Assembly: GCA_018822885.1 (NCBI GenBank)
Contig: JAHJJA010000149.1
Span: 771-64,770 of the forward strand
Length of the DNA stretch: 64,000 bases
Reading direction: 5' to 3'
DNA from: Candidatus Omnitrophota bacterium
GTDB lineage: Bacteria > Omnitrophota > Gorgyraeia > Gygaellales > Profunditerraquicolaceae
In this document: in pieces, positions 3,354 through 41,648 of the stretch
Layout of the letters: every line of letters starts with the position of its first letter
Position numbering within the stretch: position 1 is the first letter of the stretch
Position numbers and translations under genes: made by a program
Notes under the pieces: model-generated
What the model saw: only the letters and a program-made list of their open reading frames with translations
Database searches by the model: none
What the model was told of the DNA's origin: nothing

Positions 3354-4925
3354 TTATTCGATGGGCCTTTGTAAATACTCCGGGGTTTCTTTACCTATAA
3401 TATTGTAGAAATTTGACATATGGACCCGAAACAACCTATCGAAACTACCTCCCGGATCTTCACCATACCACCAAAACCAATCGCTTCCCTCTAGTATATG
3501 CATCTGCTTCCACGCCAAACTTAAGTCCTTACCTGCCCCAAGTTTATCGAAGGGTGAGTTTGCAACCTCCTCCAATTCTTTCCTTGCCTTGGCTAAATAC
3601 TCCCATGCGCGCACCTTTTGGGGCATCCCGATCCATTTACCGAAATCTCCGAAAATCCATGAACCGGCAGCAAGCCTTTTAATATTAAACTGTGGCGGAA
3701 ATTCTTTAAGATACTCGCTAACAGTTACGGATTTAATATTCCTGGATTCCGATAATCCCTGATAAAGCGCATTTAAGAAATCATGCCCGTCATTCGCGTA
3801 ATATTCCCAGGCATTCTCTCCATCCATAGCGATAGTGACAAGGCTGTCTTCATCCTTAAACGCCTTTGCCGTATTCTCCAAATGCTTGATGAAATCCTTC
3901 GCCGCATCATTCGGGTCCCATTTATGATAAACAAAACCTATTAAATCAGAAAGGTTCCTATCGCGAAAAATTATATTTAATTCTCCATCTTTTCTTTTTA
4001 ATAAATGCGGCTGATAAAGTAGGCCCGTATCCCGCTTCTTTCTCCTCAATGATTTAAAAAGGATGGCCTCATCCGTGACTATCCACTTGATGCCGCATTG
4101 CATAAAAAACGGGAGTATCTCTTCGCATACAGACTCCTCCGATGGCCACATACCGCAAGGCATAATTCCAAACCTCTGTTTATAAAACTCAACCGCGCTC
4201 TCAACTTGTTCTTTTGCATCCTGGGGAAAAGAAAATTCTATTCTCGGCAAGAGTGTCTTAGGATTAGCCTCCTTCGCCAGGTTAGTGCTGTAGAGTAATG
4301 GTAAAATAGGATGATAATACGGAGTAACCGAGACTTCGATCTGCCCCTTTTTAATCGATCTATTGTAACCGGGAATTATATCTTTTAGAATCTCAAGGTG
4401 CTTATCAAGGACAGCATGCTTTTCATCTTCGGTGAAATAACGCGCCTTTCTTACTGCGTTTCGTAACTCCGGAAAGCCCTCCCTGAAAGACGGGTCGATC
4501 CAGGCTAAATTAAATAATACCTGCAGATCAAGATAGTCCTGCGTATCGAATTGACAATGGCCTTGTTTTTTAAAATACAGTTCATAATAACGAGGAAAAA
4601 CGGAAACGACTTTATCAGGGTTGATTGAAAAGAAATTTTGCAGGATAAATTCTTTCTCCTGATAAGAGAGCTCTTCTGCTTTCTTATAAGAGAACTCTAA
4701 AAACTTATCTTTTACGGCGTGATTATTATAATCCTCTATCTGTTCGAATAAAGACGGGACAATATTAAAGGTCTGATGTATCGCGGGATAATTATCAAGG
4801 ATCTGCACCATATCCAGGTAATCCTTGACTCCGTGAAGCCGCACCCAAGGAAGCTCTGACTCCTGCGTCAGGATATTCTTGTAATACGGCTGGTGCATGT
4901 GGAAGATAAATGCGAGATATAACAT
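3354..4925 (-). CDS. Glycoside hydrolase family 57 alpha-glucan-active enzyme (AmyC-like alpha-amylase / 4-alpha-glucanotransferase type).
   Basis: N-terminal LYLAFIFHMHQPYY ... WVRLHGVKDY is the GH57 HxHQP signature. 523 aa is a typical length. Confidence 0.8.
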   Translation of the reverse strand: MLYLAFIFHMHQPYYKNILTQESELPWVRLHGVKDYLDMVQILDNYPAIHQTFNIVPSLFEQIEDYNNHAVKDKFLEFSYKKAEELSYQEKEFILQNFFSINPDKVVSVFPRYYELYFKKQGHCQFDTQDYLDLQVLFNLAWIDPSFREGFPELRNAVRKARYFTEDEKHAVLDKHLEILKDIIPGYNRSIKKGQIEVSVTPYYHPILPLLYSTNLAKEANPKTLLPRIEFSFPQDAKEQVESAVEFYKQRFGIMPCGMWPSEESVCEEILPFFMQCGIKWIVTDEAILFKSLRRKKRDTGLLYQPHLLKRKDGELNIIFRDRNLSDLIGFVYHKWDPNDAAKDFIKHLENTAKAFKDEDSLVTIAMDGENAWEYYANDGHDFLNALYQGLSESRNIKSVTVSEYLKEFPPQFNIKRLAAGSWIFGDFGKWIGMPQKVRAWEYLAKARKELEEVANSPFDKLGAGKDLSLAWKQMHILEGSDWFWWYGEDPGGSFDRLFRVHMSNFYNIIGKETPEYLQRPIE

Positions 4926-4927
4926 TT

Positions 4928-4964
4928 ATAAAAAAACCCCCGGGAGATTTCTCTCCCGAGGGTC
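4928..4964 (-). terminator. Intrinsic terminator for the outer-membrane-protein gene. On the minus strand the hairpin CCCTCGGGAGAGAAATCTCCCGGGGG is followed by TTTTTTT.
   Basis: Stem-loop plus T7 tract read directly. The T-tract runs straight into the GH57 ATG at 4925. Confidence 0.6.
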
Positions 4965-4984
4965 TTTGTTTTTACATGAACTGC

Positions 4985-6340
4985 TTAGAAAGTAACCTTC
5001 ATTGAACCAACTAATTCGGTAGCAACGCTTCTGTTTCCGTGATCAGTGCAATCCTGCTTATCGAATGCGCCACCCGGCATAAATATGCCGCCTAAGAGGT
5101 TGAACTGCACATCTTCAGTGTAATCATAAGTCAATGTGGCATCGATTTCCGAGCCGACATATTTTTTATGATTCATTGTGATGGTATCGCCTCTTAATGT
5201 TTGGAGTACCTGTTTGTCACCGTATTTCTTATCCCACCAATAGGCAAAATACTCGCCTTTTACGGTAAGATCGTCCTTAGGCTTGAATACGACGTTTCCG
5301 CCTAATACGTGCGCATTGCTTTGAGGAATCAATGCATTGGCAATGTCACCGGTTTTCTGGTCCTCAAACATCGGATCCCAACCTCTGTAGTAATTCTTGT
5401 TACCCTTGTTTCCCTGGAAGAAGCAATAAATACCAGTGACGGTCGGGCTGTACTTTACATTCTTCAGGTTATAAGAAACCATAACCTCGCCGCCAAAAGC
5501 CCCTCTTGACTGAACATCAGTCTTTGAAAGAGCGCCGGTGTTGTACTTACCAAGCTGATAAGCTGCTTCGACTGAATAGGTCAATGCATCAAGCGGTGCA
5601 CCTGCTATACGCACGCCGGGAACAATGACTTTGTCAGACTTGCTGTGTCCGGAAGCAACCTGATAATTCTTTTTTCTTGTTTCTTTTGCCCAGACATAAC
5701 CTTCGATTGTGGTCTTTTTATCAAGCATGTAATTAGCGTTGATACCATAAAGGTTGATGTCATCGTTATTGTTAAGTACTTTTTCGCTAACCTTAGCCAG
5801 TACAACATCAATGACTAAAGGATCATAGTTCAATGTAGCACGGACCGCGTCAAATGACTTGCGAGTGCTAAGATCCCAATCGCGTCCTGCACCACCAAAT
5901 GCGCTGGAGGTAGGTGCGGATTCAGGAAATGATGTTCCAATGATCATAGCATTTCCGAAACGAAGCTCCTGGCGACCGATAGTCAAGGTCAAAGGTGAAT
6001 ACAGGAACTCTTTCAATGTCGCATAGGCTAAATCGATATCGATCTTGGAGTTATTTGTTGTAGCATCATCATCCTGATTACCCCAATATCTGTCGTTTAA
6101 AAGCCTTACGGTTGTAGACACATTGTCAGTAAGGTCTGCATCAACTCTTACGCGGACAATGCTTGCGAAAGCTCTCTCATCCTTAAGACCAGCCTTTGAA
6201 TCTAAACCAAAGTTATTGCGAGCGATGCCGTACATGTTCAAATCACCGCTAACTTTAACATTCTGCACTTCGGCGTATGCGGCAAAAGCAATACCGACCA
6301 CAAACGCTAAGGCCAGAACTAACATTAAATGTTTCTTCAT
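4985..6340 (-). CDS. Outer-membrane beta-barrel protein (porin-like) with a signal peptide.
   Basis: Signal peptide MKKHLMLVLALAFVVGIAFAAYA. Alternating amphipathic strands. C-terminal ...SMKVTF ends in Phe, as OMP barrels typically do. Confidence 0.6.
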   Translation of the reverse strand: MKKHLMLVLALAFVVGIAFAAYAEVQNVKVSGDLNMYGIARNNFGLDSKAGLKDERAFASIVRVRVDADLTDNVSTTVRLLNDRYWGNQDDDATTNNSKIDIDLAYATLKEFLYSPLTLTIGRQELRFGNAMIIGTSFPESAPTSSAFGGAGRDWDLSTRKSFDAVRATLNYDPLVIDVVLAKVSEKVLNNNDDINLYGINANYMLDKKTTIEGYVWAKETRKKNYQVASGHSKSDKVIVPGVRIAGAPLDALTYSVEAAYQLGKYNTGALSKTDVQSRGAFGGEVMVSYNLKNVKYSPTVTGIYCFFQGNKGNKNYYRGWDPMFEDQKTGDIANALIPQSNAHVLGGNVVFKPKDDLTVKGEYFAYWWDKKYGDKQVLQTLRGDTITMNHKKYVGSEIDATLTYDYTEDVQFNLLGGIFMPGGAFDKQDCTDHGNRSVATELVGSMKVTF

Positions 6341-19447: not shown

Positions 19448-19620
19448 AGCGTTAATCGTTAATCGGTTGCGTAACTCGAATCGTTAATCGTTGATCGGTT
19501 GCGTAGCTGGAAACGTTAATCGTAAATCGTTAATCGGTTGCGTAGCTGGAAACGTTAATCGTTATACGGTACGTTAAACGTTTAACGTATGACGTTTCGA
19601 TTGACGCAACCGCAACCTTT
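19448..19620. repeat. Tandem array of about 3.5 copies of a 32-39-bp unit (CGTTAATCGTT[A/G]ATCGGTTGCGTAGCTGGAAA), followed by the perfect 18-nt palindrome ACGTTAAACGTTTAACGT. It fills the whole leuC-leuD spacer.
   Basis: Read directly. Units at 19450..19481, 19482..19513 and 19514..19552, plus a partial fourth. Palindrome at about 19571..19588. Confidence 0.7.
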
Positions 19621-27301: not shown

Positions 27302-27852
27302 TGTTTTCTATAAAATGATAATGCAGTGTCTCCGTATCTGGCTTCTTTAACCAAAACGAGCTCACCGCTTTCTTTGGGTAGCTCGTCTTTCTTAGAATGT
27401 TGAGCTATAATAAAACCGCAAGGCGCTAATATATCATACGAGTTTAGGATTTGCAAGGTTTTTTTTGTCAATGATTCCGCATGCTTACTTTTATAATAAG
27501 GAGGATCGAGAAAAACAAGGTCAAACACCCTTTTTTCTTTTTTTAAGAAAGGTATTACTTTTTCAGCCGCATGAGGATATAAAAGGCAATTCCTAGGCCT
27601 AAGCAGTTCAATGTTCCTTTTTATGGCAAGCTGGCACTCCCGGTCAGATTCCGCCAGCACCAGTTCCCTTACTCCCCGAGAAAGCGCCTCAAAGCCAACT
27701 GCTCCTGAACCAGCGAACAACTCAAGAAAAGTCAAGCCCTCTACGTCGCCCAAAATATCAAAAATCGCCTTTCTTACCTTATCCTGCGTCGGCCTTATAC
27801 GCAAAGGCATCCTTAATACCCTACCCTTATATTTGCCTGTGGTGATCCTCAT
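27289..27852 (-). CDS. rsmD: 16S rRNA (guanine966-N2)-methyltransferase RsmD.
   Basis: RITTGKYKGR ... DPPY motif. Start set at the internal ATG adjacent to the upstream stop. Confidence 0.75.
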   Translation of the reverse strand: MRITTGKYKGRVLRMPLRIRPTQDKVRKAIFDILGDVEGLTFLELFAGSGAVGFEALSRGVRELVLAESDRECQLAIKRNIELLRPRNCLLYPHAAEKVIPFLKKEKRVFDLVFLDPPYYKSKHAESLTKKTLQILNSYDILAPCGFIIAQHSKKDELPKESGELVLVKEARYGDTALSFYRKQCAK

Positions 27853-29348
27853 CTTAAATACCTCAAAGCCAGCTCTGCCGCGTCTCTGCCGGAAACAAAA
27901 CAAGCGTGGGCTCCCCCTCCCGGGCGGGTCCAGGCGCCTGCCAAATAAAGCCCCTTTACCTTAGTTTCTTGAGAGAGTCTGTTCATTCCTGACTGCGGGA
28001 TAGTTTGGGCAAACCCGTATATCGCGCCTTCCGGAGAAGATCCATACCTGGCAATAGTCAATGGGGTCGCCACTTCCATGATCTCAATATGCTTTGAGAG
28101 CCCGGGCAAGTACTTTTCAACGCGCTCAATAAATTGCCTTGCTACCTCTATCTTCTTAATCCTGTATTCCTCTTTGGCAAATTTACTCCAATGCTGGAAA
28201 GTATCAAATGAAATAATCAGGATACTTCCCTTGCCCGCAGGGACTACACTCGGGTCGATCTGGGCATGATCTGTCAACAGCAAAGAGCACCTCTGGTAAT
28301 CTTGTTTTAAACTAAAATCGAAACTTTCATTATGATCATAGGTAGTATTAATTGAAAACATGAAATGGTCCATTCCTAATTCTTTTGCCGGAATATCCAA
28401 TCCCAGATAAACCTGGACTGCGGAAATAGATTTTTCTATTCGTGCAAGTTGTTGCGAATAATTTTTAGCAAGCAAGGGGTCATCTATCAATTCTGTCAAT
28501 GTCTCAATAGCGTTGGCGTTTGAGATCACGGTTTTTGACAGGATCTTCTCATCCCTATCCGTAACCACCCCTTTGACAACCCTGCCTTCTACAATGATCT
28601 TCTTAATAGAAGTATTAAATCTAACCTCTGAACCCTGCTCCTTGATCTTCTTGACTATCGCCTCAAAAAGCCTCATAAACCCGCCTTTAATATAAGCAGT
28701 ATGGCTATAATAATAGCCTTTAAACACCAATAAATAATACAATGCTGCCAATCTACGCGGAGGAAGCCCCACAAATCGCCAGATATCAGTAATAACAGAG
28801 GCCAGCTTAGGATCACTGATGAATTTGCTAATAAACTGCTCGACGCTTATAAGCGATGTCTTAATTAAAAGCGGGAATCGAAATGGAAGTATGAGCATAA
28901 CGATCCAACCCGGAAGTTTCAAATCGCAGAAACGATCAAACTGCTCAAAAAACTTTTTATACTCCCTGAATAATCTATCGATATTCTTGGATTCTGCGGG
29001 AAAATCTTTCTTTAACGAAGCCGCTAAGTTATCGCAGTTAAAATCCACCAGGAAATCATGGTCAGGATAAATCAGCCGGCAAAAATCCTTTAACTCAATA
29101 AACTCTACCATCTTGTCAACGCCGAATTCCTCCAAAAACTCCCGCACCTCTCCACCTTCTCCCAGGCTATCAACGCAATGGAGGCTCGACTCAAAAACAA
29201 AGCCTTTACGGGTAAAAGTAGTAGCAAGCCCTGCGCAAACCGTCTGCTTCTCTATGACCAAAACTTTCTTACCCGAGTAGGATAATTTTAAACCGGCAGC
29301 CAGCCCGCCGATTCCGGCTCCGATAATTATGCAATCATATTCTTTCAT
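27849..29348 (-). CDS. FAD/NAD(P)-dependent oxidoreductase of the phytoene-desaturase / amine-oxidase (CrtI-like) family.
   Basis: N-terminal DCIIIGAGIGGLAAGLKL ... VLVIEK dinucleotide-binding motif. 499 aa. Confidence 0.7.
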   Translation of the reverse strand: MKEYDCIIIGAGIGGLAAGLKLSYSGKKVLVIEKQTVCAGLATTFTRKGFVFESSLHCVDSLGEGGEVREFLEEFGVDKMVEFIELKDFCRLIYPDHDFLVDFNCDNLAASLKKDFPAESKNIDRLFREYKKFFEQFDRFCDLKLPGWIVMLILPFRFPLLIKTSLISVEQFISKFISDPKLASVITDIWRFVGLPPRRLAALYYLLVFKGYYYSHTAYIKGGFMRLFEAIVKKIKEQGSEVRFNTSIKKIIVEGRVVKGVVTDRDEKILSKTVISNANAIETLTELIDDPLLAKNYSQQLARIEKSISAVQVYLGLDIPAKELGMDHFMFSINTTYDHNESFDFSLKQDYQRCSLLLTDHAQIDPSVVPAGKGSILIISFDTFQHWSKFAKEEYRIKKIEVARQFIERVEKYLPGLSKHIEIMEVATPLTIARYGSSPEGAIYGFAQTIPQSGMNRLSQETKVKGLYLAGAWTRPGGGAHACFVSGRDAAELALRYLR

Positions 29349-30217
29349 AGCTTATTAAAGAAATTTATCAGTTCAGTTGCTACTTTGTCTTTATCCTTAT
29401 CTATAGTGATCATATGATAACTATTCTCAAGGATGACCAGCGACTTTTGCGTTGAGCCGATATTATCATACACATACCTTGAGTTCTTAAGGCTGGTCAT
29501 ATCATCTTCGCGGGCATGAATGATGACTATAGGAGTATTTACACTTCTGAATTCTTTTTTCGCTACTTTTGTAAAAATGTGGTGCTGGTAAAGACAAGCC
29601 ATAGGAAAAAAAGGGCTACCGAATAAAAGCACTTTTTTGTACGCCTGTTTTGCATCGGCATTCTTATAAAAACGCTCAATATTCTCCCTTAGCTCCTCAT
29701 CTTTAAGGCCATAAGGCCAGCCTTCTCTGATATCAAACAAATTGCGCACAAAAGGCATATGCCAGGTAAGCTCCATCAGGATTTTACCTTTGTGCAAGGC
29801 CCAGCCATCATAGAACAACGTTGGGGCAAGCGCTGCTATTCCTGAGACTTTTGAGGGAAATAGATAAGCCAAGTGTATAGACATTACAGCGCCCATAGAA
29901 AGCCCGCCAACAAAGACTTTTTCATGCCCTTCTTTCAGTCGGTTAAGGTCTTTTACGCAGGCATCTGCGATTTCCTGCCAAGTTACTTTCTTGAGCTCTT
30001 GAAGCGTTCCGCAGTGACGCGGCAAAACACCGCAAAAAACAGAAAAACCCGCCTGATTCAGTAACTTTGCCTGATAGCGCATCTCCGAAGGAGTGCCGGT
30101 TATCCCGTGGATAAGAAGAACAGCTTTACCGTTTCTGCCTTCCAGAAAAAAGTCGTATTTTTTTGTTTGTGCGTTTTCCATAGAGTTGGTATTATACCAT
30201 AATTTAATTAATTTCAA
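29345..30217 (-). CDS. Alpha/beta-hydrolase (carboxylesterase-like).
   Basis: Nucleophile elbow GGLSMG (GxSxG) and an HG oxyanion motif in LLIHGITG. Confidence 0.65.
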   Translation of the reverse strand: MKLIKLWYNTNSMENAQTKKYDFFLEGRNGKAVLLIHGITGTPSEMRYQAKLLNQAGFSVFCGVLPRHCGTLQELKKVTWQEIADACVKDLNRLKEGHEKVFVGGLSMGAVMSIHLAYLFPSKVSGIAALAPTLFYDGWALHKGKILMELTWHMPFVRNLFDIREGWPYGLKDEELRENIERFYKNADAKQAYKKVLLFGSPFFPMACLYQHHIFTKVAKKEFRSVNTPIVIIHAREDDMTSLKNSRYVYDNIGSTQKSLVILENSYHMITIDKDKDKVATELINFFNKL

Positions 30218-30264
30218 TTTTTTTCATTGTTGTCATTTTAAGTATTTGCTATACTAAAACTCTT

Positions 30265-31428
30265 ATGGAAATACTAGACAAAGTAGAATTCAAGATTATT
30301 GACTCCATAAAAGATATCTCCAAAAAAGATTGGGAAAGCCTTTTTGGAACAGACTCTCCTGAAGGCTACGGCTATCAAAAATCCCTAGAAGAATCCGGCA
30401 TACCCGGATTTGACTTTGGCTATGTAGTAGGCACTAGTAATAATAAAACACTAACCACCCTTCCATTCTTTATAAACGATTTCTCGCTAGGCATGTTTTG
30501 CCAGGGCCTTCCAAGAAGCCTTATCGCATCTGCACAAAAAATATTCCCCCGCTTCTTAAGGTTCAAGCTTCTTTTTATCGGTTCTCCTACTACAGAAGAA
30601 TTTAAAACCAGGAGCTTAAATAGTAGCGACCTAAATACTTTGGTAGGGCCCGCCCTAGAAATAATCCATCAATATTGTCGAGATAATAAAATAAACGCAA
30701 CCGTTTTCTACAATTTATCCGGGAATGAAAGAATATTGGCGGATTATTTTAAAACACAAGGATTCTTCTGTATGAATGGCCTGCCCAGCACTATGATAGA
30801 AATCAAAGCAAAATCGCTTGATGAATTCATTCAGAGGCTTGGCAAAAGCACACGCAAAGACCTGCGGCACAAACTAAGAAACTCCGCTCTCCAGGCAAAC
30901 CTTACCACAGAGACCAGAGACAATATCGAAAGCATTGAAAACGAAGTTTACAGCCTATACCTTAACAATTTTAACGGCTCTGATATCCATTTTGAAATAC
31001 TGCCGATCAAATTTTTCAGGGAAATCTCTAATAATATGCCCGGTGTGGCAAAATATTTTATTACCCGCGATAACGGTAAAATCGTCGCCTTTAACTTATG
31101 CCTGATAAAAAATGATACTTGTATTGACAAGTTTATTGGCTTTGACTCTGGAGTCGCGCATAAATACCATCTTTACTTCACCACACTCTCCCATAATATA
31201 GGCTGGTGCATTGATAATGGGATTAGATTTTACCAGACAGGAGCCACTGATTACCTACCCAAGGTACGCCTCGGAGCAAAATTGATCCCCCTATTGATTC
31301 TTTTTAAAGCCTTCAACCCCCTCCTACACCTGACACTGCGCTTATTCTCCGGCTTATTAAAACCGGAAAACCTCGATTCCTCCCTGAAAGAGATCTCAAA
31401 ATTCCGCAAGACCCGGTCTTACAAATAG
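30265..31428 (+). CDS. DUF482/COG3146-like (BioF2/FemAB-like) GNAT-fold acyltransferase.
   Basis: N-terminus DSIKDISKKDWESLFGTDSPEGYGYQKSLEESG resembles the DUF482 N-terminus. 387 aa. Its last 8 codons plus stop lie inside a palindromic repeat element. Confidence 0.5.
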   Translation: MEILDKVEFKIIDSIKDISKKDWESLFGTDSPEGYGYQKSLEESGIPGFDFGYVVGTSNNKTLTTLPFFINDFSLGMFCQGLPRSLIASAQKIFPRFLRFKLLFIGSPTTEEFKTRSLNSSDLNTLVGPALEIIHQYCRDNKINATVFYNLSGNERILADYFKTQGFFCMNGLPSTMIEIKAKSLDEFIQRLGKSTRKDLRHKLRNSALQANLTTETRDNIESIENEVYSLYLNNFNGSDIHFEILPIKFFREISNNMPGVAKYFITRDNGKIVAFNLCLIKNDTCIDKFIGFDSGVAHKYHLYFTTLSHNIGWCIDNGIRFYQTGATDYLPKVRLGAKLIPLLILFKAFNPLLHLTLRLFSGLLKPENLDSSLKEISKFRKTRSYK

Positions 31429-31480
31429 CCAAGACCCGGTCTTGACTTTCTATCACAATGTTAAGACCAGGTCTTGATGC
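31401..31480 (+). repeat. REP-like element with three tandem AAGACC[C/A]GGTCTT palindromes. The 48-bp core (31429..31480) recurs inverted at 33781..33840.
   Basis: Palindromes at 31408..31420, 31430..31444 and 31462..31476. 46 of 52 positions match the reverse complement of 33781..33832. Confidence 0.65.
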
Positions 31481-31599
31481 TATTTTTTTCTCCTAAGCAA
31501 GCGCTTTCTTTTTTGGCGATAATAGCATTGCATCCTTATAATGTATAATACATACTTTAAGCAAGGTCGATATTAAAATTATAATGGAGGACAGTTAAA

Positions 31600-33756
31600 A
31601 TGAAGAAAATAGCAGTCATAGGGCTTTATTTTTGTCTTTTTGTTTGTAGCGCATTTGTTATTCAAAAGGCTTTTGCCGGTGAAGACGGCCTCAGCATCTC
31701 CGGCAGTTACGACAATAGTTTTTCCGCCGATTATGATTACATATTGAATGACAATAATAGCTATGGCTCTTCTTCCAGCTATGATTACATCGCCAATAAC
31801 GATAACTTTGATTACTCCGATTCAAATTACGATTTTTTTAGTAATATCCCTGATTCACTGAGCCTTAGCATGGATAATAATAATTTTTACGCACCTTCCA
31901 ACCTTGATTACCTTAATAATGATAACTACGATTTTGCCAATTTAAATAACAACTATCTTAGTAATATCCCTGACAAATTGTCGCTTAGTATGGGAGACAT
32001 GGGCAACAATCTTTACAACGCCCCTTTCAACGATTTTGATTATTATCCCCCGGCTCAAAATTTCGCTACCGATGTTGTTTCTGTAGGGCTTGAACCGGCA
32101 GGGGCTTTTGGCGTCAGAGGTAATATTCATAATTCCCCCCCTGTCGGAATGCCTCTTGATGCTAATGATCCCTTGGGCTCTCCTATCAATAACGACACTC
32201 TTCCAACTAACCCTGGTATGAATAATCCAGCGGATTTTCCTATCAATACTAAAGCTCTCCAACGCATTGCTGCTGAAGGCTTTATGCTTCCTAAAAACAA
32301 CGTCGATAACCAATCAGATATTTCTATTAATCACGATCCGCTCTGTGGCGGAATGGATTATGATACATCTATGGCAGGCTTAAGCGACATTAACACTGCC
32401 CCTGGCCCAACTGTCGGAATGCCTTTTGACAACAACCAGCAAGCGTCTGCTTCCGTTGATTCTATGGCAGACAATCTCATCTCTATGCCGGGAGCAAGCG
32501 ATCTGGAAATTGCTTCGCTTCCAGCTGCTGATATTACATCATATCCTCATGGCGACTGTCGTTCAGCACAAGATATAGCCGCTCATCCAAGCAATTTCTT
32601 AAATACCCCGGACTTATATACAAAAAGTGCGGCCGCGCCAGTTAATGACTTATCGAAGAATACTCCAGCAACAGTGCCTGCCTATGAACAAACCGTATTA
32701 GAAACCGGTAACCGCGCGCTTGTAAGAGATCCTTCCGATCCTATTGGTTACACCGGGATAGACACCACGCCTGCAAATGATCCTTCAATGCTTAGCAAAA
32801 TAGGCAGCGGCATCGGAAAAGGCCTAAGTTATGTTTGGGAAGGTAAAAAAGGACCAGGAAATGAAGGCGGAGGTATTGCCGGCGTAATTAGCGGCGTAGT
32901 CAGCGTAGTCCCTTATGTAGCTAACGCTTCTATTACCGGGGTAGCGGGGGACATAAAAGATGGTGCCCAAAAAGTGAGTTCTCTCTGGAAAGATGAGCCT
33001 GTTGAAGTTCCAAGCGTAATACAACCCAGGGAAATCGTCCCCCCTCCATTTGTAGAGCCCGGTTCAACGCGAAAAACTACTATTCCCACTATACCAGAGT
33101 CTACTTTCACTAAAATCAACAACAAAGCCGCCGAAGTGGTTGATTATGTAGGCGAAGCTTCTCTTGTCAAAGTAGTAGGTGACATAAAAGAAGGCGTTAA
33201 GTGGACAACTGGTAAAATAGCGAACGGAACGGATTACGTAGTAGACAAAGCAAGCTCTCTTTGGTCGCAATCAGAACCGCAGACTCCGAATCCATATGCC
33301 GGATCAGAAAATTATGATATGCCGGTGCCCCAAGCAGCGCCATTTGACTATATCCCAAACACTGCAGTAACAGAACCAAACACAACCTCTACGTACAATG
33401 GAGAAAATATTGATAACATGATGAGATCTCATGATCCGTATCTTGATGACAACAGCGGAATAAATATCAATGCGGCAAATCCAATAATCGATAGAACCAC
33501 TTTAGGGGCACAAGCTCCAATCCATGACGCACTTTCACCAAGCATCGCGCAACCAAATGACACCAATGATCACATTGAGGCAGATTTTGATTTATATCCT
33601 ACGCTAGACATACAATCTGGCCCTACTGATCACTATGATTTCGTCACACCTCCAGCTCCAAGTTACAATAATCCTATCGGAGATCTTTCTAATCATCCAC
33701 TTAGATTAGATCGCCTCAAATCAGATAGCGATACGAACCCTATAAAATATTACTAA
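31600..33756 (+). CDS. Secreted, low-complexity Asn/Asp/Tyr/Ser-rich repeat protein of unknown function.
   Basis: Signal peptide MKKIAVIGLYFCLFVCSAFVIQKAFA with a GGAGGA SD. Internal repeats (SNIPDSLSLSMDNNN / SNIPDKLSLSMGDMGNN; VGMPLD / VGMPFD; GDIKDGAQKVSSLWKDEP / GDIKEGVKW...SSLWSQSEP). 718 aa. Confidence 0.7.
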   Translation: MKKIAVIGLYFCLFVCSAFVIQKAFAGEDGLSISGSYDNSFSADYDYILNDNNSYGSSSSYDYIANNDNFDYSDSNYDFFSNIPDSLSLSMDNNNFYAPSNLDYLNNDNYDFANLNNNYLSNIPDKLSLSMGDMGNNLYNAPFNDFDYYPPAQNFATDVVSVGLEPAGAFGVRGNIHNSPPVGMPLDANDPLGSPINNDTLPTNPGMNNPADFPINTKALQRIAAEGFMLPKNNVDNQSDISINHDPLCGGMDYDTSMAGLSDINTAPGPTVGMPFDNNQQASASVDSMADNLISMPGASDLEIASLPAADITSYPHGDCRSAQDIAAHPSNFLNTPDLYTKSAAAPVNDLSKNTPATVPAYEQTVLETGNRALVRDPSDPIGYTGIDTTPANDPSMLSKIGSGIGKGLSYVWEGKKGPGNEGGGIAGVISGVVSVVPYVANASITGVAGDIKDGAQKVSSLWKDEPVEVPSVIQPREIVPPPFVEPGSTRKTTIPTIPESTFTKINNKAAEVVDYVGEASLVKVVGDIKEGVKWTTGKIANGTDYVVDKASSLWSQSEPQTPNPYAGSENYDMPVPQAAPFDYIPNTAVTEPNTTSTYNGENIDNMMRSHDPYLDDNSGININAANPIIDRTTLGAQAPIHDALSPSIAQPNDTNDHIEADFDLYPTLDIQSGPTDHYDFVTPPAPSYNNPIGDLSNHPLRLDRLKSDSDTNPIKYY

Positions 33757-33757
33757 A

Positions 33758-33871
33758 CAAAAGGGGACGTTTCTATTTATTAAACATCAAGACCCGGTCT
33801 TAGCATTGAGATAGAAAGTCAAGACCGGGTCTTAATTATGTTTCAGAAAAATAGAAACATCCCCTTTTGTT
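33758..33871. repeat. Compound nested palindrome of about 114 bp. Outer arms are ACAAAAGGGGACGTTTCTATTT and AAATAGAAACATCCCCTTTTGT. The inner part is an inverted copy of the 48-bp AAGACCCGGTCTT double-palindrome element. Likely a bidirectional terminator between convergent genes.
   Basis: Read directly. Inner palindromes at 33788..33802 and 33819..33834. Confidence 0.6.
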
Positions 33872-33879
33872 TATTTCTT

Positions 33880-35067
33880 TTAAAACTTCCTTAAGGCCAA
33901 ACAGGCGTTGTTCCCTCCAAATGCGGAGGCGTTGTTAAGGGCGATATTGACTCCTGCCTTCCGCGCGACATTCGGCACGCAATCAATATCACAATCAGGG
34001 TCAGGTGTTTCGTAGTTAATAGTAGGCGGGATCATATCTGTTTTTAGCGCCATGCAGCAGGTGATTGCCTCAATAGCAGAAGCAGCTCCCATGGTATGGC
34101 CCAACATTGATTTTATCGAACTTACAGGAATATTGCGGTAATTATCCGGAAAGGCTTTTTTTATACCAAGGCACTCTTCCCTGTCGTTTGAAGGCGTACC
34201 TGTGCCATGCGCGCTGATGTAACTAACATCGCTCTTCTTTATCCCTGAATCATTGACCGCTTTTTCCAACGCATCCTTTATCCCTTCGGAAAATGGTGCT
34301 GTCATATGATGAGCGTCACAGCTTAGGCCATAGCCTAAGATCTCCGCGTAAATATTCGCCTTTCGTTTAAGAGCGCTCTCAAGCGGCTCTACCACCACAA
34401 CCCCTGCGCCCTCGCCAACCATCATCCCTTTGCGATTCTTGTCAAAAGGCTGGCATACTTTAGGCGCAACTGCCAAAAGGCGGTTAAAACCAATAAAGGC
34501 TATTCGAGAAAACGCATCAGCCCCACCAGCTAGCATAAACTCCGCCTCGCCTGCGCGGATAAGATCATAGGCATAACCAATAGCATAATTGCCGGCAGCA
34601 CATGCAGTAGGTATGACAAAATTGGGACCTTTTAATTTAAAATGATCAGCAACATTCAGAGACAGAACATTGGTAGGATATTTTGGGATCAGGCTTACGT
34701 CAATAGCATCGATTCCTTTATGGACCCAGGTATCGTTGATCACCTCAAGGACCTGTGACTCACCCATGGTCGTCCCAAGACAGATCCCGAAAGCATTCTT
34801 ATCAGAATCATTAATAGCTAAACCGGAATCCTCTAAAGCAAGCTTTGAAGCGGCTATGGCAAGCTGTGATGCCCTGCCTGGGCCCGCTGTCTTAAAATGC
34901 TTTACTTCTCCGCCAAGATGCGTCGGAAAAGCCGATGTATCAAAAGAGGAGATCTCTGAGATCCCGGATACGCCTTTAGTAAGCGCCTCCCAAAAAGCTT
35001 GCTTGCCAATCCCTATTGATGAAACAACCCCAAGCCCAGTAATGACAATGCGCTTTCCCGAACCCAT
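33880..35067 (-). CDS. Beta-ketoacyl-ACP synthase (KAS I/II family) with an intact catalytic Cys-His-His.
   Basis: PTACAAGNYA (Cys), AHGTGTPSND (His), SMLGHTMGAA (His). 395 aa. Confidence 0.85.
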   Translation of the reverse strand: MGSGKRIVITGLGVVSSIGIGKQAFWEALTKGVSGISEISSFDTSAFPTHLGGEVKHFKTAGPGRASQLAIAASKLALEDSGLAINDSDKNAFGICLGTTMGESQVLEVINDTWVHKGIDAIDVSLIPKYPTNVLSLNVADHFKLKGPNFVIPTACAAGNYAIGYAYDLIRAGEAEFMLAGGADAFSRIAFIGFNRLLAVAPKVCQPFDKNRKGMMVGEGAGVVVVEPLESALKRKANIYAEILGYGLSCDAHHMTAPFSEGIKDALEKAVNDSGIKKSDVSYISAHGTGTPSNDREECLGIKKAFPDNYRNIPVSSIKSMLGHTMGAASAIEAITCCMALKTDMIPPTINYETPDPDCDIDCVPNVARKAGVNIALNNASAFGGNNACLALRKF

Positions 35068-35502
35068 CTAATTTTCCTTCACACTAATACTAAGCTCTCC
35101 CCTGGCAACTTCTTTGTCGCTGACTTGCGCTGTTACGTTGACAATGCCTCCCGTAGAAATCAGCTTGACCGGGACTACGGTGATCCTGATCTGATCACCG
35201 GGAAAAACCGGATTCAAGAACTTAATCTTTACATTCCCCAGATAATAAGAATACTTCTTAGCTGCCTGCTCCGGTTTGGCCCCGGCAAAAAGCATTATTG
35301 AGGCCTGCGCCATTGCCTCGATTATCAAGACTCCCGGCATGACAGGCGCATCAGGAAAATGCCCGGAAAAAAACTCCTCATTTACAGAGACGTTTTTAAT
35401 CGCCACCACTTTTGCGCCCGGCTCTAATTCTATTATGCGGTCGATCATCAAAAACGGAAAGCGCTGGGGCAGTATTTTCTGGATCTCTTCTATGTTATAC
35501 AT
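35068..35502 (-). CDS. FabZ/FabA-like hot-dog 3-hydroxyacyl-ACP dehydratase.
   Basis: FPFLMIDRIIELEPG ... HFPDAPVMPGVLIIEAMAQ signature. Confidence 0.8.
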   Translation of the reverse strand: MYNIEEIQKILPQRFPFLMIDRIIELEPGAKVVAIKNVSVNEEFFSGHFPDAPVMPGVLIIEAMAQASIMLFAGAKPEQAAKKYSYYLGNVKIKFLNPVFPGDQIRITVVPVKLISTGGIVNVTAQVSDKEVARGELSISVKEN

Positions 35503-35503
35503 T

Positions 35504-35752
35504 TTAGACCGCCTTCTTTTCTAAATATTCCTTGGCCACTCTGACTGTATCGCTTAAGGTAGTTAATTGAGTAAGTTTTTCTTCAGGAATGACGATCTTA
35601 TATTTCTTTTCAACCGCAGTGAGGATCTCAAGAGCCATCATAGAATCCACTCCCAGCTCTTCAAAAAACTTTGCTTCAGGTGTTATCTCACTCGGCTCCT
35701 TTTCAATGATCTCCGCAATAAGCCCTCTTATTTCGTTTTCAACATTTTCCAT
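35504..35752 (-). CDS. Dedicated acyl carrier protein (second ACP in the window).
   Basis: LGVDSMMALEIL attachment motif. 82 aa. Confidence 0.8.
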   Translation of the reverse strand: MENVENEIRGLIAEIIEKEPSEITPEAKFFEELGVDSMMALEILTAVEKKYKIVIPEEKLTQLTTLSDTVRVAKEYLEKKAV

Positions 35753-35765
35753 AGTATCCTCTCTC

Positions 35766-35790
35766 TAAAAAAGGGGACGTTTCTATTTTT
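35766..35790. repeat. Copy of the AAAAGGGGACGTTTCTATTT motif (R2 family) in the spacer between the KR gene and the ACP gene.
   Basis: Identical 20-mer at 33760..33779. Inverted near-copy at 33850..33869. Related GGGACGTTTTC at 41572..41582. Confidence 0.4.
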
Positions 35791-35804
35791 CCCCTTTTCC
35801 CCTA

Positions 35805-36551
35805 CTACCTAATAGATAATCCGCCGTCAATAATCATAACCTGCCCGGTAATAAAACTGCTTGCCTCGCTTAGTAAAAACTTGACTACCCCCGTGACATC
35901 TTCGACTTTCCCAAAACGCTCTAAGGGGATATTCTTTATTAACTGGCCTTTATACTCCGGCTTTAAATCGGAGACCATATCAGTCTCGATAAATCCCGGG
36001 GCAACCGCATTGACCCTAATGCCATAAGGAGAAACTTCTCTTGCCAGCGACTTAGTAAAACCGATGATACCGGCTTTGGAAGAGGCGTAATTAGTCTGCC
36101 TTGCCAGGCCAATGACCCCGCTTACCGAAGTAATATTTACTATATTGCCGCTTTTTTGCTTTAAAAAAGCCACGATCGCGTTACGGCTAAGATTAAAGGT
36201 GCCTGTGAGATTCGTGTCGATGACATCCTGCCAATCCTCTTTGCTCATCATCATAAGAGCCTTATCCCTGGTGATGCCGGCGTTGTTCACGATAATATCA
36301 AGCCCGCCAAGCGTTGTTTTGACATTTTCAACCGCTTCTTTGGTCTTATCAAAATCACGCACATCCACTTGTAAGGCCAAGGCTTTTACCCCGGATTTCT
36401 CGATCTCCTTTTTCAAAGAAGCTGCTTCATCAACGCTTTTTAAATAAGTAAAAGCCACGTCCGCGCCTTCTTGGGCAAGCATCAAACAAATTCCCCTGCC
36501 TATCCCCCTTGTCCCGCCGCTGACAATCGCTACTTTGTTTTTTAATATCAT
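35805..36551 (-). CDS. SDR-family 3-oxoacyl-ACP reductase-like ketoreductase.
   Basis: VAIVSGGTRGIGRGI ... NAG ... YASSKAG motifs. Start set at the internal ATG abutting the upstream stop. Confidence 0.8.
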   Translation of the reverse strand: MILKNKVAIVSGGTRGIGRGICLMLAQEGADVAFTYLKSVDEAASLKKEIEKSGVKALALQVDVRDFDKTKEAVENVKTTLGGLDIIVNNAGITRDKALMMMSKEDWQDVIDTNLTGTFNLSRNAIVAFLKQKSGNIVNITSVSGVIGLARQTNYASSKAGIIGFTKSLAREVSPYGIRVNAVAPGFIETDMVSDLKPEYKGQLIKNIPLERFGKVEDVTGVVKFLLSEASSFITGQVMIIDGGLSIR

Positions 36552-37549
36552 TGAAATCTCCCGATAATCATGCTTGTGGCAGTACAATTTAAACCGGAGG
36601 CGCTTATCAAGACTTTATCTATATTTGCATTCTTTTCCATAGAAGCTAATCCTGCTGCTGCAGAAACAGCGCCCTGGGCGCTCAAGCAATCCCCGGTGAG
36701 TGATCTTATCTTCTCCATATCCTGGACCAAATCAATATCTTTATCACTAAGCCCAGCCCTGTTCAAGCAAGAGTTAACAGAATCCTGTAAACCGGATGGG
36801 CCGATACCGTTGCCAAATGCCAGGACTTCAGCGTATATTTTTCTTTTTCTGGCCAAAGCAGATTCCAGATCTTCCAACACTAAAACCGCTGACCCCTCCC
36901 CAAGAATAAAACCATTATTTTCCATTAAGCCAGTTTTGTAAAATCCCAGAAAAGTCTCAAGACACAACTCCTCAACTCCCCCTGTCAACACTGCTTTTAT
37001 CCGCCCCAACCTCAAAAAATCAAAAGCATACTTTAATGCATCAAGGCTCGCGCTAAAACCGGTTGAGAGCGTGGCATTAAATCCCTTAATATTAAACCTT
37101 ATCGAAAGCTGGCTAGCCGGAGAATTAACCACCGTATTTGGAAAAAGCGCCGGATTAACATAATGAGGCCCTTCCCGCAATGCCTCCTTATCGAATTCCA
37201 TGATGCTATGCGCGCTTCCCAAAGTAGAGCCGATAGCAATTCCGGTTGAACGCGAATTTTCTTCGGTGATTTCTAAACCGGAGTCTTTTAAACCAAGATA
37301 TGCCGCGCAAGAAACCAGCTTGATACTCCTATCAAGCGTACGCAAGCCCTTAACTCCTAAGAACTCCTGGGGATTAAAGTCACTTATCTCGCCGGCAGTC
37401 TTAACGGTAAAATCCTTCGTATCAAATAAGGTAATAGGCTTTATCCCGCTCTTGCCGCTTAAAACCGCGTCAAAAAAGGCGTCTTTTCCTGTGCCGCAGG
37501 CGCTTAGTATCCCTATTCCAGTTATTACTACTCTTCTTTTATCCATCAT
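36548..37549 (-). CDS. Truncated ketosynthase-like protein lacking the active-site Cys (chain-length-factor / KS-beta-like partner).
   Basis: N-terminus RVVITGIGILSACG is KS-like. The aligned active-site position reads STGFSAS (Phe in place of Cys). The His-motif region reads GDCLSAQGAV (His replaced by Asp). Only 333 aa. Confidence 0.6.
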   Translation of the reverse strand: MMDKRRVVITGIGILSACGTGKDAFFDAVLSGKSGIKPITLFDTKDFTVKTAGEISDFNPQEFLGVKGLRTLDRSIKLVSCAAYLGLKDSGLEITEENSRSTGIAIGSTLGSAHSIMEFDKEALREGPHYVNPALFPNTVVNSPASQLSIRFNIKGFNATLSTGFSASLDALKYAFDFLRLGRIKAVLTGGVEELCLETFLGFYKTGLMENNGFILGEGSAVLVLEDLESALARKRKIYAEVLAFGNGIGPSGLQDSVNSCLNRAGLSDKDIDLVQDMEKIRSLTGDCLSAQGAVSAAAGLASMEKNANIDKVLISASGLNCTATSMIIGRFQ

Positions 37550-40550: not shown

Positions 40551-41585
40551 CTACAAAGAACCCCTAAGAGGAAATGACTCTGCGGGGGTTTTTTGTTTTG
40601 CGGGGCTTGAGCAGTCCTGGATGATTTGGTACATCTCCTTTTTTGTCTTCACTCTGGAGGACTTTTCGCGGAGATGACGCACACCTCTAAAACCCTTGGT
40701 GTACCAGGAAAAGAATTTACGGAATATCACGACTGCTCCCCTCTCGCCGTAGAAATCTACGCAGGCATCCAGATGCTCTGTCATTACCCTTTTTATATCT
40801 TGCCTCGCTGGTTTAGTGATTATTCTCCCATCCTTTAGTAACTCAACTGACTGCTTGAATATCCAGGGGTTCCCCAGCGCACCTCGAGCTATCGCAACAG
40901 CATCACAACCGGTCTCTTCAAACATCTTTTTTACTCCGAAGGCTAAAAACACATTGCCGCTTCCTATGACTGGGACGCCAATCGATTTTTTTACCTCTCT
41001 AATAGCCTGATAATCAACCTCTCCGCCATAACCATCCTCTTTTGTCCTGCCGTGGATAAAAAGCGCGCTTATCCCGGCATCTTCGGCTAACTTTGCGACC
41101 ACCTTAGAATTCTCCGAATGCCTGTCCCATCCGGTGCGGATCTTTAATGTAACGGGAACGTGCGAATTCTTTACCACAAGCTTAAGGATCTTGCTTAATT
41201 CTTCCGGCTCTTTTAACAAGCTCGCCCCCTCTCCCCTGCGCGTGACTTTTTTTGCGGGACAAGCGGCATTAAAATCCAGGATATCAAAATCATAACGGCT
41301 TAAAATATCCAGAGCTCTAAGTATATACTTCTCTTCACATCCTAAGAGCTGCACCCCTAAAGGCCTGTCCTCGGGCACTGAATAGAGCATCTTCTGCGTT
41401 CTCTTACTTCTATAGCCGAGCGAGCGGGCATTTATCATCTCCACAAACGCAAGCTCGCATCCGAATCTACGATTCAGTATGCGAAAAGGAAAATCGCTTA
41501 TCCCGGCCATTGGGGCGAGGATCAAGTTGGATTTTAATTTAAGAGTCCCTATTTTTAGCATTGGTTTCTTAGGGACGTTTTCCAT
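40551..41585 (-). CDS. tRNA-dihydrouridine synthase (DusB-like).
   Basis: LAPMAGISDFPFR ... TIM-barrel Dus family, catalytic Cys region. Confidence 0.8.
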   Translation of the reverse strand: MENVPKKPMLKIGTLKLKSNLILAPMAGISDFPFRILNRRFGCELAFVEMINARSLGYRSKRTQKMLYSVPEDRPLGVQLLGCEEKYILRALDILSRYDFDILDFNAACPAKKVTRRGEGASLLKEPEELSKILKLVVKNSHVPVTLKIRTGWDRHSENSKVVAKLAEDAGISALFIHGRTKEDGYGGEVDYQAIREVKKSIGVPVIGSGNVFLAFGVKKMFEETGCDAVAIARGALGNPWIFKQSVELLKDGRIITKPARQDIKRVMTEHLDACVDFYGERGAVVIFRKFFSWYTKGFRGVRHLREKSSRVKTKKEMYQIIQDCSSPAKQKTPAESFPLRGSL

Positions 41586-41644
41586 TCCAAAGCAAAGAGT
41601 GTCCCCACCGGGGACACTCTTCCGATTGGTTTTGAAAACGTCCC
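41572..41644 (-). promoter_or_regulatory. Nested palindrome between pgi and the dusB-like gene. The inner hairpin is AGAGTGTCCCC-ACC-GGGGACACTCT. Its outer arms GGGACGTTTTC / GAAAACGTCCC overlap the dusB start codon.
   Basis: Read directly. The outer 3' arm coincides with ATGGAAAACGTCCC, the first codons of the dusB-like gene. Confidence 0.4.
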
Positions 41645-41648
41645 TGGT

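Follow-up and report, generated by a model that had tools for sequence, protein, structure and literature searches.

The closest described systems to the one considered here are the REPIN-RAYT system of Pseudomonas fluorescens SBW25 and the repetitive extragenic palindromes (REPs) of Escherichia coli, organized there in bacterial interspersed mosaic elements (BIMEs) and associated with RayT/YafM. In these systems, short inverted REPs combine into one hairpin (the REP doublet forming a hairpin, or REPIN), and the associated gene codes for a REP-associated tyrosine transposase (RAYT). The 5' cleavage tetranucleotide of the E. coli REP is GTAG. Another class of dispersed palindromes, the Rickettsia palindromic elements (RPEs), are ~100-150 bp long, insert into coding genes and are not tied to a RAYT. 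A single-copy RAYT gene flanked by REPs or REPINs is the defining arrangement of REPIN-RAYT systems (PMC5581495). Here we analyze a 64,000-nt stretch of DNA (hereafter, the window) from a Candidatus Omnitrophota bacterium (assembly GCA_018822885.1, contig JAHJJA010000149.1, positions 771 to 64,770), in which a gene coding for a 718-aa orphan protein is bracketed by two inverted copies of a double palindrome. The system to which we assign this double palindrome is thus of a known kind, REPIN-RAYT, in a phylum for which a literature search returned no report linking RAYT or REPIN with Omnitrophota.

The double palindrome and its family

The feature called a 48-bp double palindrome in a preliminary description of this DNA is a REPIN, that is, two inverted 13-nt REPs (AAGACCNGGTCTT, with a free central base) making one long hairpin. 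The left REPIN (31431-31479, plus strand) is composed of the REP palindromes 31431-31443 and 31463-31475 with a 19-nt loop between them, while the right REPIN (33785-33833, minus strand), which is inverted relative to the left one, is composed of the palindromes 33789-33801 and 33821-33833. The two copies are identical at 46 of 49 bases, for which the chance expectation is ~3e-16. The identity of 46 in 52 positions proposed earlier holds if the right copy is taken as 33784-33835, the interval given at the time (33781-33832) being off by 3 nt; the inverted orientation was recovered by a repeat finder and by direct reading of 31201-34100 alike. The left hairpin (31425-31482) folds with -27 kcal/mol (z -7) and the right one with -23.6 kcal/mol (z -6), the z-scores of the hairpins overall ranging from -6 to -13. 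Both elements thus display what defines a REPIN, namely two inverted short palindromes with a spacer, folding as one long hairpin. Comparison with Rfam returned only sub-threshold matches to miRNA-precursor hairpins, which is the generic behavior of a long hairpin.

Exact copies of AAGACCNGGTCTT occur five times in the window (at 31408, 31431, 31463, 33789 and 33821) compared to 0.13 expected, and all five adjoin the orphan gene. Degenerate copies with up to 3 mismatches show no excess over chance elsewhere in the 64 kb. The copy at 31408, overlooked in the preliminary description, is a REP singlet (AAGACCCGGTCTT, 31408-31420, no strand assigned) and constitutes a third REP on the left side. 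It lies within the last codons of the upstream open reading frame (ORF), coding for a FemAB-like acyltransferase, where it encodes KTRSYK and the stop.

In order to place these elements in a wider context, one genome per species (GTDB representatives) was scanned for AAGACCNGGTCTT-N(10-30)-AAGACCNGGTCTT. Among the matches listed, the closest relatives of the source genome have ~70-75% DNA identity to it over conserved genes. Among the matches listed, doublets were found in more than 103 stretches from ~17 metagenome-assembled genome (MAG) assemblies, mostly labelled Omnitrophota, and several of these genomes contain many of them. In the DNA retrieved from these matches, there are at least 45 element clusters in JBAZTA01, at least 32 in CAZPNW01, at least 21 in JAHJQM01 and at least 15 in VGKK01. 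Altogether, the retrieved loci hold 140 clusters with 293 palindromes, and doublets make up 107 of the 140 clusters. The free central bases of the two doublet halves are complementary in 100 of these 107 doublets, compared to 25% by chance, and therefore the doublet is a true inverted repeat or hairpin and not a pair of independent sites. In the window, the right REPIN (central bases C and G) follows this rule, while the left REPIN (C and A) is among the rare non-complementary doublets. Loops range from 10 to 29 nt across the family and fall into genome-specific subfamilies.

A crude ORF caller allowed the context of 115 clusters to be scored, and 106 of these are intergenic. The flanking genes are tandem in 86 cases, convergent in 13 and divergent in 7, and the median position is 13-14 nt past the stop of the upstream gene. 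The genes bracketed by two elements in the relatives are of every kind, including glmM, the EF-G gene, exopolysaccharide (EPS) operons, permeases and genes for CBM96 proteins. BLAST against plasmids and phages gave no match, and neither did a scan of viral contigs for the doublet.

In several relatives, the doublet is also present in frame inside large or giant ORFs (the largest of more than 2,600 aa, likewise called with a crude ORF caller), where it encodes RPGL...RPGL (L015:1034-1088, L044:5478-5523, L077:1033-1087, L098:4269-4311, L105:6070-6107 and L007:3459-3506). The in-frame doublets are reminiscent of RPEs. Unlike RPEs, the window copies are intergenic, except for the 7-codon tail of the FemAB-like gene.

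For the source genome itself, the evidence on copy number consists of the 64-kb window and one probable extra copy, L136. This copy came from a subfamily-specific scan of metagenome contigs with the 17-mer GGTCTTGACTTTCTATC, which gave 42 matches, 41 of them chance matches without the palindrome. L136, the only true copy, is at an unrelated, ordinary intergenic site between a 138-aa gene and a downstream gene, 15 nt past a stop codon. Its match to the right window copy is at least equal to that of the left copy, and in the alignment of all three copies, homology starts and stops exactly at the outer REP arms. We infer that each of the window copies is an independent member of the REPIN population of the genome and that they are not the ends of one mobile or invertible unit.

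RAYT genes flanked by the same palindrome

A candidate transposase for this family is encoded in one of the relatives (MAG CAZPNW01, L072:5142-5759). Its product matches Pfam Y1_Tnp with 51 bits (cut-off 23) and contains both the HUH motif (NHFHLL) and the tyrosine motif (RYIHLNP) by which Y1/HUH transposases are recognized. The flanks of this gene hold the biggest REP clusters seen in this study, with 10 palindromes on one side (4785-5127) and 4 on the other (5778-5898). The two flanking arrays are tandem and are made of repeated composite units. An ortholog with 75% identity adjoins a REP cluster in another relative (L004).

Five further RAYT loci (L148-L153), coding for three distinct proteins with 58-61% identity to the L072 protein, share a conserved gene order, i.e., a BNR/sortilin-like gene, the RAYT gene and a thioredoxin gene, followed in the longer loci by CbiA/DRTGG and PTA genes. 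In each of them, AAGACCGGGTCTT lies ~33 nt before the ATG of the RAYT gene and AAGACCCGGTCTT ~15 nt after its stop, as inverted singlets. The homologs of L148-L153 bear the JGI label 'REP element-mobilizing transposase RayT'. In total, there are seven RAYT loci flanked by AAGACC(G/C)GGTCTT, representing five distinct proteins, all in relatives. The BNR-like gene stands beside the RAYT gene in 7 of 7 loci, and the full order to PTA is present wherever the DNA extends that far. Among the retrieved loci, there is one RAYT hit per genome.

Since a transposase at a conserved position, flanked by abundant REPs, is the published hallmark of such systems, we assign the dispersed element to a REP/REPIN-RAYT system of an Omnitrophota clade. 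The likeness to the systems of P. fluorescens SBW25 and E. coli extends to the inverted short REPs forming one hairpin, their extragenic position just past genes, the tens of copies per genome in relatives, the genome-specific loop or spacer subfamilies, and a Y1/HUH gene with conserved synteny and the same REP inverted on both flanks. The Omnitrophota system is different in its REP core, a short and perfect palindrome of 13 nt whose central base is free and which is shared by many species, and in its copy numbers, which are apparently below the hundreds in Pseudomonas. A single-copy RAYT of the Y1/HUH type would spread the REP family through intergenic DNA, and this RAYT-driven mobility is suggested by the association of the two families.

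The association with RAYT genes also bears on whether the five 13-bp palindromes around the orphan gene are the operator sites of a dimeric regulator of this gene, acting for example by DNA looping. A perfect 13-bp palindrome whose central base is free is what a dimer typically binds, and three such sites lie upstream and two downstream of this single gene. But in many genomes the same doublets stand behind unrelated genes, at more than 100 sites in all, and they are placed after stop codons and not at promoters, and the palindrome is tightly associated with RAYT genes. Furthermore, the central bases covary as those of a hairpin or inverted duplicate would, the loop sequences are conserved too within a subfamily, and the left sites in the window are at least ~40 nt upstream of the -35 element of the orphan gene. 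An operator function is therefore very unlikely, and assignment to a REPIN-RAYT family is preferred.

Three other classes of repeats were set aside by inspection against the known traits of each. Integron attC sites differ in their core and in being direct instead of inverted, and an integrase is missing here; a CRISPR locus would have a regular repeat-spacer array, of which there is none; and uptake sequences would be far denser and would not be almost entirely extragenic as these sites are.

Terminator-like hairpins and contig breaks

Both REPINs of the window are part of structures that resemble intrinsic terminators. On the left, the REPIN stem is lengthened by ATAGC/GCTAT, ends at 31482 and is directly followed by a run of seven T (31483-31489), resulting in a terminator-like structure of the FemAB-like gene at 31426-31489 on the plus strand. 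On the right, the REPIN is nested in a larger hairpin (33754-33873, no strand assigned), formed by a 25-nt inverted repeat of 96% identity (33754-33778 and 33849-33873) that begins at the stop codon of the orphan gene and was also overlooked previously. The energy of this nested hairpin is -57 kcal/mol on the plus strand and -64 kcal/mol on the minus strand. It has an A-tract before it and a T-tract after it on both strands, the outer stem being followed by TTTTGTTTATTTCTTTT on the plus strand and by TTTTGTTTAGTAATATTT on the minus strand.

Left and right, a G+C-containing stem thus stands directly before a T-run, as in intrinsic terminators, and the A-tract/stem/T-tract arrangement on the right lies between convergent genes, as in bidirectional ones. 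The left REPIN would terminate the FemAB-like gene, while the right REPIN, in its bidirectional terminator-like stem, would serve the orphan gene together with the convergent beta-ketoacyl synthase (KS) gene. In contrast to ordinary intrinsic terminators, the window elements have long loops of 19 nt, and their sequence is that of a conserved repeat and not of a structure that arose locally. REPINs do not generally lie inside longer hairpins, as the complementarity of their flanks was no stronger than that of permuted flank pairs (Mann-Whitney p = 0.91), and nested cases are few, namely L048, L089 and the right copy of the window.

Other hairpins were noted in the window. Two minus-strand genes are separated by a palindrome (41571-41645) with 36-nt arms, which are 81% complementary, and a 3-nt spacer; it has the motif GGGACGTTTYC in common with the outer stem of the right hairpin. 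This motif occurs 7 times in the window (sites include 33764, 35774, 63482 and 9417) compared to 1.6 expected, and it may represent a second hairpin or terminator family. In the intergenic region 19450-19606, three tandem copies of ~32-39 nt, built from CGTTAATCGTTRATCGGTTGCGTA units, are followed by an overlapping palindrome.

In two independent SRA assemblies (SRR2540949 and SRR2544004; Logan contigs L001, L002, L156 and L157), contigs end inside the right hairpin, at 33816 on the side of the orphan gene and at 33804 on the KS side. These breaks are relevant to the possibility that the 2.3-kb segment between the elements is an invertible DNA switch recombining between the inverted copies. 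Inverted repeats of 49 nt with 94% identity have the right geometry for such a switch, and the breaks of contigs from two samples inside the right element speak for it as well. However, no recombinase is present among the neighbors (FemAB-like acyltransferase, KS, FabZ, ACP, FabG and hydrolase genes), and the putative promoter of the orphan gene lies inside the segment, so that flipping would alter nothing obvious. The left junction is in the window orientation in SRR2540949 (L001), the sole sample with a spanning contig, and the KS-side contigs of both samples enter the right element in the window orientation as well. Between the contigs of the two sides there is an overlap of 13 nt, located in the hairpin loop, and this is more in keeping with a coverage gap at a -60 kcal/mol hairpin than with a branch. 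Thus, neither an adjacent recombinase nor a second orientation was found, the assembled contigs showing the window orientation only. A switch is extremely unlikely, and the break at 33804-33816 is probably a sequencing or assembly drop-out at the ~-60 kcal/mol hairpin.

Two further observations concern the same contigs. At the 5' end of Logan contig SRR2544004_611000 (L002:1-15), an Illumina adapter (ACGCTCTTCCGATCT) is fused to window position 31496, which is an artefact. The 9.2-kb contig L001 differs from the window by three substitutions only (27505, 27508 and 27520; L001:2849-2864), and its other 9,157 bases are identical.

The inserted segment and its orphan gene

The orphan gene stands between the FemAB-like/GNAT acyltransferase gene (30265-31428, plus strand) and the KS gene (33880-35067, minus strand). 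The closest homologs of the FemAB-like protein are ~53% identical. In one relative (L155), the gene order of the window is found, i.e., amine oxidase, hydrolase, FemAB-like, convergent KS, FabZ, ACP, FabG and KS, with an overlap of a few bases between the FemAB-like gene and the convergent KS gene. The FemAB-like gene likewise abuts KS/FabZ in L154 and in an ENA/NCBI contig. L154 and L155 contain no REP. In the window, the FemAB-like homology reaches no further than ...LKEI, and the codons beyond this point lead into the REP singlet. Because the two genes abut in three relatives and the homology stops at ...LKEI, the DNA from the end of the FemAB-like homology to the KS stop codon (approximately 31396-33879, plus strand, ~2.5 kb) is regarded as a lineage-specific insertion relative to these three relatives. 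The synteny check suggested in the preliminary description, whether the gene is missing between the FemAB-like/GNAT and KS genes elsewhere, is thereby answered in the affirmative for these relatives. As for the two alternatives offered there, a REP/MITE-like (miniature inverted-repeat transposable element) terminator family proved essentially right, given the dispersed intergenic hairpin repeat associated with RAYT genes in relatives. The second alternative was an acquired or invertible segment. Its first half is supported by the abutting genes, while its second half finds neither a recombinase nor a second orientation.

The orphan gene (31600-33756, plus strand, 718 aa) has, as proposed, a putative promoter of its own, a sigma-70-like match at 31513-31542 (TTGGCG, 18-nt spacer, TATAAT; 10/12), and a Shine-Dalgarno sequence (GGAGG, 31586-31590, plus strand). 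It is not the only long plus-strand gene in this part of the window, as had been stated, since the FemAB-like gene is on the same strand. The N-terminus of its product is hydrophobic and resembles a signal peptide, ending in AFA before GE, and N, D, S and Y abound in aa 27-160, so that both the signal peptide and the low-complexity stretches described earlier are seen. Internal duplications are also present, at ~40 aa and not the 60 aa reported (aa 61-99 vs. 102-142, z 8.2; aa 435-467 vs. 512-560, z 7.5). On the other hand, the N-x-S/T sequons, earlier called many, number 7, compared to 9.7 +/- 2.8 expected from composition. The protein itself was the only match in a word-indexed search of 5.8e9 proteins and in a full phmmer search of 1.84e9 representatives, there is no match in Pfam or NCBIfam, and the single-sequence AlphaFold2 model gives no confident fold (predicted local distance difference test, pLDDT, 34). 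The product is best regarded as an orphan, probably secreted and largely low-complexity protein. The earlier suggestions of an adhesin, an S-layer or biomineralization protein or a glycosylation target find no backing in a homolog, a family match, a confident fold or an enrichment of sequons.

The orphan gene sits in the middle of a cluster that is kept between the window (27849-37549) and L155:4571-12189 at ~50% identity. This cluster comprises genes for an amine oxidase-like protein, an alpha/beta hydrolase, the FemAB-like acyltransferase, a KS, an ApeP/ApeI-like dehydratase, an ACP, a FabG-like reductase and a second KS, and it looks like an aryl-polyene-type or specialized lipid pathway.

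The position of the REPINs at both ends of the insertion raises the question whether the pair and the orphan gene arrived as one mobile cassette, either as cargo moved by a RAYT or in the manner of a mobile insertion cassette. The segment is indeed an insertion relative to three relatives, and the only REPINs in 64 kb flank exactly the orphan gene, the chance that the only two element sites fall in adjacent gaps being P ~0.05-0.1. In addition, the FemAB-like frame ends inside REP DNA, so that a REP is located right at the left junction, and RAYT genes themselves have the same layout of a gene between inverted REPs. As in mobile insertion cassettes or MITE-bounded passenger genes, inverted repeats surround a single non-transposase gene that is absent in relatives. 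But there is no second copy of the gene or the unit in the protein sets of 5.8e9 and 1.84e9 sequences or in plasmids, phages and viral contigs, and inspection revealed no clear target-site duplication, only a weak AAAA(C)TTCC similarity at the junctions. The segment also differs from mobile insertion cassettes in having no terminal inverted repeats of the insertion sequence (IS) type, and its repeats belong to a dispersed family of hairpins, pairs of which stand on either side of ordinary housekeeping genes in relatives, the REPIN-bracketed single genes there being mixed and not mostly orphans. The similarity between the window copies does not exceed their similarity to L136, and the right copy lies in a separate inverted repeat and not at the segment boundary. 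The hallmarks of a mobile cassette or composite transposon were not found, and an empty site is seen in distant relatives only. On balance, arrival as a unit is unlikely, and the more specific version, in which REPIN, orphan gene and REPIN form a RAYT-mobilizable cargo unit delivered between the FemAB-like and KS genes, is even less probable. If true, REPIN pairs in Omnitrophota could capture and move a gene, mimicking the inverted-REP layout of the RAYT gene.

We favor instead the colonization of new, unconstrained spacers by REPINs. Both of the spacers created by the insertion would each have gained a REPIN, and the left one also an extra REP singlet; the order of events that we infer is insertion and then REPINs. 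Overall, our reading is that the two elements are independent, terminator-like members of a REPIN-RAYT family that flank an inserted lineage-specific orphan gene, and we give it a probability of about 0.7.

Several points weigh against this reading. The subfamily is known from three loci only, two in the window and L136. The Omnitrophota RAYT differs from the described ones in that the best NCBIfam match of the L072 protein, REP_Tyr_transpos, scores 50 bits, under the equivalog cut-off of 80. No RAYT was found in the 64-kb window, and the association is thus seen in relatives of the source, whose proteins are ~50% identical. A role of the REPINs as transcription terminators or 3'-end stabilizers is most likely, because the hairpins stand directly after stop codons; it is a role suggested by structure, and a consensus terminator scan (loops of 3-8 nt) called a small single-REP hairpin only and not the long-loop hairpins. 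Finally, given the placement in adjacent gaps (P ~0.05-0.1), the elements and the insertion are likely to be linked in some way, be it through a preference for new, unconstrained spacers or through co-arrival.

These results account for the flagged double palindrome by a hairpin repeat of the REP/REPIN type and take away the case for an invertible switch, and they document a REPIN-RAYT system in the uncultured phylum Omnitrophota. Its REP core is unusually short and perfectly palindromic, and it is conserved across species with RAYTs that are just 54-75% identical, which offers a clean data set for the co-evolution of REPs and RAYTs. The contigs broken inside the right hairpin in two Logan assemblies serve as a practical warning for work on such elements. 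At the same time, the locus provides a testable local case for whether REPINs colonize new DNA or help bring DNA in.

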